From positions 2,914,001 to 2,978,000 of the forward strand of contig NC_043010.1 of the NCBI RefSeq assembly GCF_006345805.1: DNA of 64,000 nt. Reading direction: 5' to 3'. This stretch comes from Octopus sinensis (taxonomy: Eukaryota). Below the pieces are notes generated by a model. It was not told the DNA's origin and made no database searches. It worked only from the letters and a program-made list of their open reading frames with translations. A program made the translations under genes and the position numbers. Position 1 is the first letter of the stretch. Each line of letters opens with the position of its first letter. Below, piece after piece: positions 9,910 to 17,650 of the stretch.

Positions 9910-10150
9910 TATACTTTATTTTAAGCAGCAGAAAATCAACAAAATCTGTTACTCTGAGTTTCTCGTTGCCGTTCATCAGACAGTTTTTGCTAGATTCTAG
10001 CAAAAACTGTCTGATGAACGGCAACGAGAAACTCAGAGTAACAGATTTTGTTGAATTTTCTGCTGCTTAAAATAAAGCATATTACTCTACCACTGGTATT
10101 TGAGTACTCTTTTTTCCACCTTGTTTCACATTTATGTGTTTACTCCGGTA
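9910..10150. mobile_element. Fold-back element 1 (~85-bp arms, centre 9995) plus unpaired 3' tail, flanked by (TA)n; probable Penelope-derived inverted pLTR
   Basis: 9910-9994 is a near-perfect reverse complement of 9996-10082. Confidence 0.85.
10007..10044 (+). ncRNA. Minimal type I hammerhead ribozyme (mirror copy 9946-9983 on minus strand)
   Basis: CTGT-CTGATGA-a-CG(GCAA)CG-a-GAAAC-tcaga-GTA-ACAG; stem I CTGT/ACAG, near-palindromic stem III ACTCAGAGT, predicted cleavage after 10040. Confidence 0.8.
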
Positions 10151-10165
10151 TATATATATATTATA

Positions 10166-10570
10166 TATAAAATATTATTCGAGACAAAACACTATTTTGC
10201 AAAACAAACAAGGAAGACTTAATCAATACATAAAATTTTAATAAATAGTCCAAAAAACCGCCACTACAATCGTTTCTTGTCTTGATCGACAATCTTCAGG
10301 TGGACTTCCAATAATTCAGTGTCAAATTTGACACTGAATTATTGGAAGTCCACCTGAGATTGTCGATCAAGACAAGAACGATTGTAGTGGCGGTTTTTTG
10401 GACTATTTATTAAAATTTTATGTATTGATTAAGTCTTTCCTTGTTTGTTTTGCAAAATAGTGGTTTTGTCTCGAATAATATTTTATAATATTTTACTATA
10501 AAATCGATTTAATCCTAAATCTGATTTTTTCCCTGTAAATTTGGATTTATTCCCTAATATTTATTATTAT
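10166..10570. mobile_element. Fold-back element 2 (~160-bp arms, centre 10326/10327) plus unpaired 3' tail, flanked by (TA)n
   Basis: 10166-10326 is the reverse complement of 10327-10487 apart from a few 1-nt indels. Confidence 0.85.
10261..10303 (-). ncRNA. Type I hammerhead ribozyme (mirror copy 10350-10390 has two 1-nt core deletions)
   Basis: Minus strand CCAC-CTGAAGA-TTGTC(gatcaa)GACAA-GAAAC-gatt-GTA-GTGG: all core nucleotides, 4-bp stem I, 5-bp stem II. Confidence 0.88.
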
Positions 10571-10733
10571 ATATATATATACATACATGTGTGTGTTTAG
10601 TGTTGACTATCAAGAAAAAGAGTACTTGATACCATAGTAGAGATTGATATATATATATATGTATATCTATATGTGTGTGTGTGTGTATGTGTGTGTATGT
10701 AAATATAATATGTGACAATTATTCAGTAGCCAT

Positions 10734-10794
10734 GATAAAACTCCACGTTTTGGATGTCGGGGCGGAACCACACGCCGCCATCTCTTCAGTTATC
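10734..10794 (-). ncRNA. Degenerate hammerhead motif with GC-rich extended stem II
   Basis: Minus strand GATAA-CTGAAGA-gatg.gcgg..ccgc..catc-cAAAAC-gtgga-GTT-TTATC; the G of GAAA is replaced by A at a putative CpG. Confidence 0.55.
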
Positions 10795-12032
10795 CGGCCA
10801 TCGAAAAAATGCTATGAAAATGACCATTAAACAAAGGGAAATTACTGTATGATTGACCGTTATTAAGACAAAAGAGCTATCAGAATGACCGCTAAGTGGG
10901 GGGAGGGAGTGAAAATGGTCATAGTATTCGCATAAGCACGCATGTCCATACATACACATACGTGCCCGTGCACCCACATACGTGCACCTATAAGTGTATA
11001 CTCATCCACTGTGTTTTACTCTTATTGCATATTTTTTAATACATATTTTGCCTCTAGCCCTGTTTTTTCTTGTGCATGTGTGTATATAGACGTGTGTATG
11101 AACCATTTTTGTGCGCGCATGTGTGTGTGTGTGTGTGAGCATGTATGTAAGTATGTATATATTTTTTGGCGAATGTGTGGGTGAGCATGTGTGTATTTCA
11201 AGTGAGGGTGGATGACTATGCACTTATATATATATATATGTGTGTGTGTATATATGTATGTATATATAATGTATATATATATATATATGTATATATATAT
11301 ATATATATATACATATATACACACATATATATATATATACACACACATATTCATATATATATATATATATATGCATATTTATACAAAGTTGAACAGTACA
11401 CTCAGATCCCATTATTGACCAGTCTCTTTTTATGCTTCTCTTCCTTGTCTTCTATCATCTCTGCAGCACAAGAGTTCTAGAGATCTCCTCCCTATGTTGT
11501 CATCAAAGACATTTCTTCTTAATATACATAACTAACTGGGTGAAATATATGTTCAAATTTGTGCAGTTTTCTGTGTCATTGCTTCTATAAATGATATGCA
11601 TTGAATGGAGAGGAATGAGATATGCATGTTGGATTGGATGGACAAAGAATACATACCAGAAAGGTCATACATATATGTGTCGAGCTAAAGGTGAAAGCAT
11701 TGCCCAATTTAAGTAGAAACTGAAGAGCTAATTATTTTGGCATATGGAATATCTATATCTATATCTATCATTCTCTCATTCTCTGTCAATATATACATAT
11801 ATATATATATATATATATATTATATATAGATATATATATTATATTATATATATATTATTCACATATAAATACATACATACAGATTTAACATAAATTTAAA
11901 AATACAACTTACATTCATATATGCATACATATGTATATATGTATATATGTATATATTATTATTATTATTATTATTATTATTATTATTATTATTATTATTA
12001 TTATTATTATTCATTCATTCATTCATTCATAT

Positions 12033-14992: not shown

Positions 14993-15345
14993 TGCAGGCA
15001 TGGCATGGCTGTGTGGTTAAGGAGCTGTTTTTTGAAACCATGAGGTCTTGGTCTCAGTCGTATTCTGTGGCATCTTGGGCAACTGTCTCAAGGTTGACCA
15101 ATGCCTTGTGAATGAAACTGTGTGGAACCTGTTATATACACACACGTATATATATATGTGTGTGTGTTTGTGTTTGTCCCCCACTATGCTTGACAACCAG
15201 TGTTCATGACAGAGCAGTTCAGCAAAAGTGACCACTAGAATAAGCACTACCTTTAAAAAATAAGTACTGGAGTCAATTTTTTTGACTAAAACCTTCAAAA
15301 TGGTGCCCCAGCATGGCCACAGTCAAACGACTGCAACAAGTAAAA
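14993..15345 (+). mobile_element. SINE family A (tRNA-derived), internally deleted
   Basis: ggctgtgtggttaagg..tgtttgtccccc..gcatggccacagtc..aacaagtaaaaga. Confidence 0.8.
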
Positions 15346-15489
15346 GACAGGAGAAATGGAGAGAAGAGTAATCATCGTTTTGGGATTAAGCTTTTGTTTG
15401 AGAGATAGAACTTTTTTTACATTTGGCCAAAGACACCAGATTTCTCCTCTTTGTACAACATATATAAACATATAAGTGCAGGCGCAGCT

Positions 15490-15905
15490 CATAGGCACAG
15501 AGGTGGGTGTGTGGTAGGAAACATGCTTCCCAACCACATGGCTCCAGGTTCAGTCTCACTGCATGGCACTTTGGGCAAGTGTCTTCTACTATAGACTCGG
15601 GCCAACCAAAGCCTTGTGAGTGGATTTGGTAGATGGAAAATAAAAGAAGCCTGTCATATATATATACATATATATTTGTGTGTGTGTGTGTGGATTTGTG
15701 TGTTGTGTTTGTCCCCACCACCATCGCTTGACAAGCAATATTGGTGCATTTACATCCCCATAATTTAGCAGTTCGGCAAAAGAGGCCGATAGAATAAGTG
15801 CTAGGCTTACAAAGGATAAGTCATAGGGTCGATTTGTTTAACTAAAGACGGTGCTCCAGCATGGCTGCAGTCAAATGACTGAAAGAAATAAAAGAATAAA
15901 AGAAT
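15490..15905 (+). mobile_element. SINE family A, full length, with internal (TA)/(TG) microsatellite
   Basis: tRNA-like head (gtgtggtagg..ggttcagtc), ttgggcaagtgtcttctactatag, tail gctccagcatggctgcagtcaaatgactgaaa. Confidence 0.88.
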
Positions 15906-17241
15906 ATTGAAATTCATTGTACATATGTGTATGAGTGTTAAGTGTGAATTTAGACTCTCCTCTTTCGTAACAAATTACAAGACGTAAATTTCTACAGATT
16001 CCCATAATATATATTCTGTATGTGTTATCTGTGTTATATATATGTATATATATAATATTATATATAATATATATATATATCTATATATATATAATATATA
16101 TCTATATATATATATTATATATATCCTCTATATATAATATATATATAATCTATATATATAATATGGTATGTATATATGTATGTACACACACATGTATATA
16201 CATATGTGTGTGTGTGTGTTTGTTATCTGTATTGCATATATATATATGTGTGTTATCTCTACTTGCAGCTAACTAAGGCTAACAACAACTGCACAGTTTC
16301 TTGTAAACTCTAATCTAATTAATGTGCACAGCATGGTCTGATAGCACCATTATCATTACCTTTTTAAAAGCGATTAATGCAGGTATGTATATTTGTATGC
16401 TTCTATTGCGCAGAGTCTAGTGTTATTTTTATATCATTTTATGTGCTCTGTTGTAAATGTGGGTGTACGTGTATATAGATATGTGTGGGCGTGAGTGTGT
16501 ATGTGTGCATGTGTGCATAACGAGATGCGTGTATGAGTGTGTGTGCATGCGTATGTCCATTATTGTGTATATTGTGTGCATGTGTGTGTGTTATGTATGT
16601 TTTATGTATACATATATGTGAGACATGCATGCATTTATGTGTCTGTGTTTCACTGTGTGTGTTGGTGTGTGTGCGCATGTAGTTTGGTTGTTTCTCACTT
16701 GAAGTAGGATAAGGATAAGAAATGTGAGATAAAAACAAAGAAGGAGATAAAAATTACAAAATAAAATTAAATACTTGCATACACACACTCACATACGCAA
16801 ACATATATATATACTAACAAGCACACACATAACTACAAATATACGCACATCCATATATATACATACATAAACATTTTATATGTGTATATAAATATTGTGT
16901 GCCCCCTTAATAAGTGTCTTTTGCTGTAGTTCCAGGCTGACCAAAGATATGATTTGATTTGATAGATAGAAGCAGTGTGGAAGCCCATCATATATAGACA
17001 TTAGTTCTTCCCTGATGATGTGTTGTGGTTAAGCATCCCACTGTACTTGGAAAATCCAATGCAGAGTTCCAAACAACCACAATGGCAAAATGTATGTATC
17101 TAAAAATAATATAAACTTGTGATTATCATAATTTGTCATATATATATATATGTGTGTGTGTGTATGTATGTGTGTGTGTGTGTGATAGAATAAGTACCAG
17201 GTTTAAAAAGATAAATACTTGGGTTGGTTCATAGAATTAAA

Positions 17242-17650
17242 ATATATATGAAAAAAAAGTCAAGATAGAAAATGGTAAAATAATTTTATAAAAAACATTT
17301 CAGTACCGGTTTCAGTCATTGACACTTTTTCAACTGTAAGTATGGAAAGCAATTAAATTTTGGAAAAGTTAAAAGAAAATTTTTTTAAAAGAATATTTTC
17401 ATGGCGTTCAAATACAAGTAGCAGGCAGAAACAAGGAAAATGGCACTTGTATTCGAACACTTTGCAAATATTCATTTAAAAAACTTTACTTTTAATTTTT
17501 TCCAAAATTTAATTGTTTTCCATACGTACAGTTGAAAAAGTCTCAATGACTGAAACCGGTATTCAAATGTTTTTTATAAAATTATTTTAGCATTTTCTAT
17601 CTTGACTTTTTTTTCATATATATCAACTTGTGTGTTCCTTTACAACCTTC
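17242..17650. mobile_element. Fold-back element 3 (~178-bp diverged arms 17242-17419 / 17445-17623, 25-nt spacer) carrying variant hammerheads
   Basis: Arms are reverse complements with scattered substitutions; short unpaired tail to ~17650. Confidence 0.85.
17301..17336 (-). ncRNA. Variant hammerhead motif with U3:A8 core (mirror copy 17529-17564 on plus strand)
   Basis: CAG-TTGAAAA-AGT(g/c)tcaat-GACT-GAAAC-cg-GTA-CTG; palindromic stem III ACCGGT. Confidence 0.65.

Follow-up and report, generated by a model that had tools for sequence, protein, structure and literature searches.

Three fold-back repeats with outward-facing hammerhead motifs in Octopus sinensis, probably truncated and inverted insertions of Penelope-like elements

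As far as the extracts of the published work used throughout this report go, Penelope-like elements (PLEs) can bear an inverted pseudo-long terminal repeat (pLTR) and an optional tail, with abundant head-to-head palindromic junctions interpreted as the outcome of self-priming (Arkhipova, 2013; PMC3846280), and inverted 5'-truncated copies with a one-sided tail and a bias towards (TA)n targets have also been described (Craig, 2021; PMC8557442). Metazoan PLEs harbour highly heterogeneous minimal type I hammerhead ribozymes (min-HHRs), characterized by a short stem I, a palindromic stem III and a U3-A8 variant, including dual min-HHRs on opposite strands some 100-700 bp apart; the monomers are inactive and the dimers weak (Cervera and de la Pena, 2014; PMC4209133), and the U3-A8 core variant is active in vitro (PMC3088659). 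For an anole PLE studied in vitro, two adjacent start sites of the reverse transcriptase (RT) define the tail, and the hammerhead is dispensable for insertion and cleaves only with the protein (PMC11167929). Retrozymes are defined as tandems, and non-LTR retrozymes have been reported besides (Cervera and de la Pena, 2020; PMC7229834; bioRxiv 10.64898/2026.07.22.740005). In the genome of Octopus vulgaris, 6.83% is attributed to PLEs from 190 families, with hammerheads unmentioned in the extract of that report (PMC13282606), and no report of octopus PLE hammerheads was found among the titles and abstract openings of the literature surveyed. The present analysis deals with a stretch of 64,000 nucleotides from O. 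sinensis (NCBI RefSeq assembly GCF_006345805.1, contig NC_043010.1, positions 2,914,001 to 2,978,000 of the forward strand), hereafter the window, which is AT-rich with many microsatellites and repeats resembling short interspersed nuclear elements (SINEs). In this window, a preliminary description made from the sequence alone had pointed out three fold-back elements, here called E1, E2 and E3 (Table 1), and regarded them as non-autonomous PLE-derived or retrozyme-like units. They are very probably three independent and strongly 5'-truncated insertions of three high-copy PLE families, each of which has kept the pLTR end together with a minimal hammerhead.

The fold-back architecture is borne out by arm alignments, with 85 of 87 columns identical in E1, 166 of 174 in E2, whose arms abut without any spacer between 10326 and 10327, and 163 of 179 in E3. 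Inside E2, all differences between the arms are single-letter insertions or deletions (indels); those of E3 include substitutions and, since its arms are 9% diverged, E3 is older than E1 and E2. As originally stated, the three elements have no evident sequence in common, their mutual alignment scores (16-27) staying within the shuffled level (maxima of 29-40). In each of them, the hammerhead motifs point outward from the fold, one per arm, the two cores of E1 starting 32 nt apart, and the flanks are TA-rich, as had been observed before. A tail on one side only is also present in E1 and E2, where the high read depth identifies it as family sequence: the bin 10090-10124 in the E1 tail reaches a depth of 1.7-2.6 million vs. 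33-49 for the unique flank, and the bins 10475-10579 around the E2 tail are high with zero depth from 10580 on. The left flank of E3 was considered as a tail and rejected, the sequence being a SINE fragment. Regarding coding capacity, a tblastn search of the window with the proteins P0001 and P0002 uncovered no PLE coding sequence (best E of 2.2), in line with the initial statement that no open reading frame (ORF) is present and, for want of such an ORF, these copies are not classed as autonomous PLEs of the endonuclease-bearing (EN+) type. Altogether, a head-to-head copy at the 5' end, a palindromic junction, heavy truncation, an apparent (TA)n target, a hammerhead in the pLTR and a one-sided tail are shared with the inverted pLTR insertions as described in the extracts of PMC3846280 and PMC8557442, although, unlike those published inverted insertions, E1-E3 have no ORF left. 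The layout is thus the published signature of Penelope-like insertions and the families are new: they were not encountered in the literature surveyed, and three short core words are absent from the supplement of PMC8557442.

Public sequencing runs give access to the families behind E1 and E2. Part of 9700-10620 is contained in 22 runs from 10 studies, and four runs from four studies, one of which may be the source of the assembly, were aligned onto 9600-10646 as assembled contigs. The peak depth over that of the unique flank is about 39,000-89,000x for E1 and 15,000-89,000x for E2, ratios that are not copy numbers and are taken only to mean that both belong to very abundant families. Depth is highest close to the 3' end and decreases toward the fold. 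E1-family contigs pass into (TA)n at 10082 (79, 40 and 30 contigs) and E2-family contigs do so behind 10487 (36 contigs in run X1), while the tails past both positions keep a high depth; two 3' ends, one short and one long, consequently characterize each family, and it is at the short one that the inverted arms stop, 10082 being the mirror position of the end of the E1 left arm. In E1, these 3' ends lie 42 or 109 nt past the hammerhead cut site. Besides, the E1 family extends upstream of 9994 in 28, 19 and 5 contigs, as read over the first 30 nt of their departing ends, which makes the fold a truncation point. The features of an inverted pLTR are thereby found together, namely a head-to-head 5'-truncated copy, two 3' ends (for E1 and E2) and a variable 5' truncation.

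The junctions themselves vary widely. Out of 106 joints in all, the 15 best supported were listed, and 14 of these are skip joints, i.e. fold-backs at other places; all 14 lie at most 24 nt from the mirror axis, and the ten E2 skip joints among them at most 13 nt from it, vs. 0.17 for each under independent truncation. No empty-site joint occurs among the joints listed, and a target-site duplication is unreadable inside the microsatellite. Moreover, the two arms of E1 agree in their allele at four polymorphic sites, including U4 (family frequencies of 0.30-0.41; product of 0.018 if independent), which indicates that they derive from one molecule. Such fold-backs are most likely made by snap-back of the complementary DNA (cDNA). 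The PLE protein with its RT and GIY-YIG moieties would nick (TA)n and cDNA synthesis would begin at the long 3' start of the family and halt after 150-250 nt; the cDNA end would then snap back on a short self-complementary word and copy itself, before the second strand would join the target at the short 3' end of the family, itself ending in TA. The product would be a head-to-head palindrome with outward hammerheads and a one-sided tail, and this scheme would account at once for the identity of the arms, the tail on one side and the near symmetry of the junctions. Twin priming, starting on both strands, is also compatible with the two 3' ends but agrees less well with the symmetry and the shared alleles, and the observed junctions favour snap-back.

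The same junctions bear on the possibility that the palindrome propagates as such, that is as a PLE-dependent non-autonomous unit of SINE or retrozyme type with a fixed fold. One junction, 7 nt shorter than that of E1, is found again in each of the four runs (10, 7, 5 and 5 contigs; depths of 5540, 3521, 308 and 52), which counts against independent truncated insertions because a propagated palindrome would give the same; a further one, 1 nt longer, attains a depth of 2227 in X1, and the families are very abundant and here devoid of ORFs. The recurrent E1-centre junction nevertheless sits on a self-complementary four-letter word, which would be a natural hot spot for snap-back, and many other junctions exist, family sequence extends past the fold on its upstream side, depth is strongly biased to the 3' end, a solo relative at 1308-1379 is unfolded and there is no tandem array, so that propagation of the palindrome is quite unlikely. 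The preliminary description had itself held that junctions unlike each other in every copy would point to insertion by-products of PLEs rather than to a unit that propagates, and this is largely what the joints reveal; of its proposal, the PLE origin is supported, but neither the propagating nor the retrozyme-like character is. It could also be argued that the near-perfect E1 and E2 are fold-back chimeras arising from the library or the assembly, as the E2 arm differences are all of the kind typical of an unpolished long-read consensus and none of the contigs listed runs across the exact junctions and into unique flank. Yet the inverted arms end at the natural short 3' end of the family with unmirrored flanks, four runs, each from a different study, contain contigs that fold back, X1 and X2 having three of the listed joints in common, and substitutions separate the arms of E3, which renders an artefact very unlikely.

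The affiliation to PLEs was approached by scanning metagenome contigs with the stem III word of E1. Over the 29 of 64 parts that the scan covered, it yielded 121 stretches with 122 matches, of which 69 have stems I and II; 11 viral contigs (L001-L011) matching the hammerhead pattern were excluded from all counts, and a family-specific pattern gave no match in the metagenome. Among the structured matches, which come from DNA of animal-like character, 29 of 69 lie less than 700 nt behind the end of a PLE ORF on the same strand vs. 3 of 53 unstructured ones and, given at least 400 nt upstream, 17 of 30 structured matches follow such an ORF. The PLE identity of these ORFs is based on motifs read by eye and on Atlas clusters: the 721-aa ORF of contig L034 displays RT, Cys-linker and GIY-YIG-like motifs, and its neighbours in Atlas clusters carry HTH_animal, GIY-YIG and RVT_1, whereas Pfam returned no PLE domain in 18 frames and a PDB sequence search of the PLE ORFs was likewise negative. 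The family represented by L034, L051, L071 and L079, which is of the Cys-linker (Neptune/Nematis-like) type as judged by eye from the linker motif, has the same stem III word as E1, with a DNA homology shown for the hammerhead only. Its geometry matches that of E1. Of 33 copies aligned to the tandem copy L051, 11 end 42 to 48 nt and 12 end 113 to 120 nt past the cut site (nine exactly at +117), often ahead of TA runs, and 3' ends at +43 and +117 can thus be set beside those at +42 and +109 in E1. In the contig L071, a short arm and a long one stand head to head on either side of an ORF fragment, and L014 and L048 carry short head-to-head pairs. The two hammerheads of L099 converge tail to tail, which is the rarer orientation. 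These relatives also bear on a reading of E1-E3 as DNA transposons of the Foldback type or as miniature inverted-repeat transposable elements (MITEs), with long terminal inverted repeats (TIRs) and hammerhead-like words arising by chance. While long inverted repeats, TA flanks, high copy number and the absence of ORF would all suit such elements, fixed and equal TIRs are not what is seen, given the unequal ends due to the tail, the variable centre, the 3'-biased depth and the solo arms; since the same motif with the same end spacing also occurs behind PLE ORFs and the motif is well above chance, this reading is highly improbable.

Regarding the hammerheads, a relaxed scan of the window retrieved five motifs, four of them inside E1-E3, vs. 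0.37 per shuffled window (at most three in 100 shuffles). With the stem I filter set at a minimum of 3 bp, both E1 arms, the E2 left arm and, as the only E3 arm, the left one with its U3-A8 core pass the scan, whereas the E2 and E3 right arms fail as assembled. The claim of a type I hammerhead in each arm with divergent orientation consequently holds for the outward motif, present on every arm, but in the assembly only three of the six cores are canonical with no letter missing (both in E1 and the left one in E2). Two letters are lacking from the E2 right core, one from the CUGANGA box, the other from GAAA; as the missing A is present in the sole contig aligned over 10376, from run X2 (depth of 52.6), these missing letters are probably errors of the assembly consensus. 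In the E1 right arm, stem III is near-palindromic, stem II has 2 bp and an A-A mismatch occupies 10.1/11.1. More generally, the G10.1-C11.1 pair, a consensus trait found with an extra nucleotide after A9, is absent from all three elements (A-A in E1, U-A in E2, A-U in E3), and for that reason the self-cleavage activity predicted from such motifs is doubtful. At core position 4 (10012 and 9978), C (U4C) makes up 29-70% of the E1-family depth; in the E1 copy, this position is the canonical U in either arm, which may result from CpG decay. With the min-HHRs in the extract of PMC4209133, E1-E3 have in common the short stem I, the palindromic stem III, the U3-A8 variant and the great heterogeneity of sequence; E1-E3 differ from them by the missing G10.1-C11.1 pair and E1 by its 2-bp stem II, the common U4C of its family and the close spacing of its cores. 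The Rfam hammerhead models gave no match in 9996-10322 up to an E of 10, nor among the 150 of 224 rows listed for the window, where the matches are below-threshold miRNA hairpins; as the ORF-linked L034 and L071, and L048, are equally unmatched, Rfam appears to miss this class of hammerheads.

The arrangement of the motifs is also unfavourable to cleavage. Upon read-through of either strand, the antisense arm comes first and only one sense hammerhead is present per transcript, so that the dimer required by minimal hammerheads cannot form within the element. Folding energies are -145 to -259 kcal/mol for the full hairpins vs. -5 to +6.5 for hammerheads folded under constraint, the constrained fit being approximate for short loops, and the palindrome would be a dead by-product with its sole sense ribozyme locked in a long duplex and probably inactive. 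The idea of a cleavage switch put forward initially is weakened by both this geometry and these energies. As for a retrozyme, E1-E3 and non-LTR retrozymes, following the extracts at hand, are alike in being ORF-less and PLE-related with a type I hammerhead, but retrozymes are arranged as head-to-tail tandems, and their circular RNAs arise between two ribozymes of the same strand, whereas E1-E3 have their motifs on opposite strands and 9500-18000 contains no tandem with a period above 35 nt.

Besides the recurrent junction, several observations weigh against truncated PLE insertions formed by snap-back. The symmetry of the junctions was assessed on the best-supported 15 of 106 joints, a selected subset, no listed contig connects the exact E1 or E2 junction to unique flank, and the run alignments cover E1 and E2 only. 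In the metagenome, only 3 of 67 loci are head-to-head and one is tail-to-tail, and seven contigs end at most 60 nt upstream of the motif. The E1 and E2 tails, of 67-78 nt, exceed the 30-40 nt given in the extract of the literature on PLE insertions, though an ORF-linked relative has a tail of 74 nt. Finally, neither RT nor endonuclease sequence is linked to E1-E3 themselves, the link to PLEs being the shared hammerhead word and the geometry, and the RT-coding masters of these three families would have to lie elsewhere.

A separate lead concerns RNA editing. The preliminary description had proposed the hairpins as substrates of adenosine deaminases acting on RNA (ADARs), which is expected of any long hairpin, and a faint hint in this direction comes from one probable RNA run, X12. 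In this run, A>G changes reach 5.3% at 10040, i.e. the adenosine of the cut site (seven contigs), and 5.0% at 10041 (six contigs), and T>C changes reach 3.6% at 10064 (nine contigs) and 10.7% at 9976 (one contig), that is 73-334-fold above all three DNA runs, where they stay below 0.1%. The comparison covers 21 rows out of the 40 listed (47 in all), and X12 stems from a different animal, its RNA nature is a guess and it consists of contigs of a multi-copy family, so that editing at the cut-site adenosine is a weak lead. The overall A>G/T>C excess in X12 is not significant (13/26 vs. 28/84, p=0.10), and the run does not cover the unique flank and is uninformative on expression. Differences at 10407, 10412 and 10413 in X12 were discarded as editing and read as a divergent copy, considering their equal depth and contig count and the inclusion of a T>G. 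The RNA-enriched changes in the E1 family could be taken as a sign that the host has exapted a regulatory hairpin or a cleavage switch at this locus, but the signal is family-wide, no host gene is identified here and the geometry traps the ribozyme; this is hardly to be credited and the least probable explanation of all. A wider proposal is a long shot: fold-back ends of PLEs, in the tens of thousands, would form a large class of ADAR substrates, and editing of the cut-site adenosine at 10040 and of a core adenosine could allow the host to switch off retroelement ribozymes; instead of this or together with it, the recurrent E1-centre junction could mark a mobile palindromic sub-family. No case of ADAR editing of a natural ribozyme was found in a single search of the literature, as judged by titles and abstract openings.

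Elsewhere in the window, the core of the solo E1 relative was accepted by the first structure scan and rejected by a stricter one. The fifth motif of the relaxed scan, at 50774-50808 (+), has a U4C core and a near-palindromic stem III and follows a short TA run without any inverted repeat. The 3' end of an abundant SINE-like repeat (51270-51310 (-) and about nine other copies) matches the stem II and GAAA box of E3 over 14-15 letters, either by chance or as a hammerhead half within the SINE tail. The segment 40060-40516 was considered as a fourth fold-back element and rejected, as it consists of two inverted SINE halves; nested inverted SINE copies span 40060-41534 (40527-40757 vs. 40960-41190, 87%) and could form long double-stranded RNA. 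A near-perfect palindrome of 40 nt lies within AT-rich sequence at 43306-43345, where the scans found no hammerhead. Broken ORFs of non-LTR retrotransposons are present at 24311-26222 and 35264-36831 (+), which both match RVT_1, and at 61511-62074 (-); from their motifs, all three are presumably Dong/R4-like.

Table 1. Coordinates (in the window) of the parts of the fold-back elements E1-E3 and of associated features.
Feature	Position	Strand	Description
Solo diverged E1 relative	1308..1379	-	between TA runs, without fold-back or tail; 53/73 identical; hammerhead-like core 1373-1337
E1 left arm (inverted copy)	9909..9994	-	stops at short 3' end of family, adjoins (TA)n; minimal type I hammerhead core 9979-9950
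E1 right arm, 5'-truncated pLTR-type end	9996..10082	+	core 10011-10040, predicted cut after 10040
E1 tail, 67 nt	10083..10149	+	on one side only; part of repeat family, from read depth
(TA)n separating E1 and E2	10150..10165	.	single microsatellite with one insertion from each of two families; E1 and E2 without homology
E2 left arm	10166..10326	-	complete hammerhead core 10299-10265, stem II 5 bp
E2 right arm	10327..10487	+	hammerhead 10354-10386 with two single-letter deletions in assembly
E2 tail, about 78 nt	10488..10565	+	on one side only; right end approximate
E3 left arm	17242..17419	-	hammerhead 17333-17304, U3-A8 core covariation, stem III fully palindromic
E3 spacer at fold, 25 nt	17420..17444	.	
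E3 right arm	17445..17623	+	U3-A8 hammerhead 17532-17561, weakened stem I
Putative E3 tail, or else flank only, 29 nt	about 17624..17652	+	ahead of CA repeat

While the system is in itself an ordinary one, its value is that of a test bed. With so many copies at hand, the positions of the junctions and the two 3' ends can separate snap-back from twin priming, which is an open step in the transposition of PLEs. Should editing at the cut site prove true, it would besides link ADAR to the control of a natural ribozyme.

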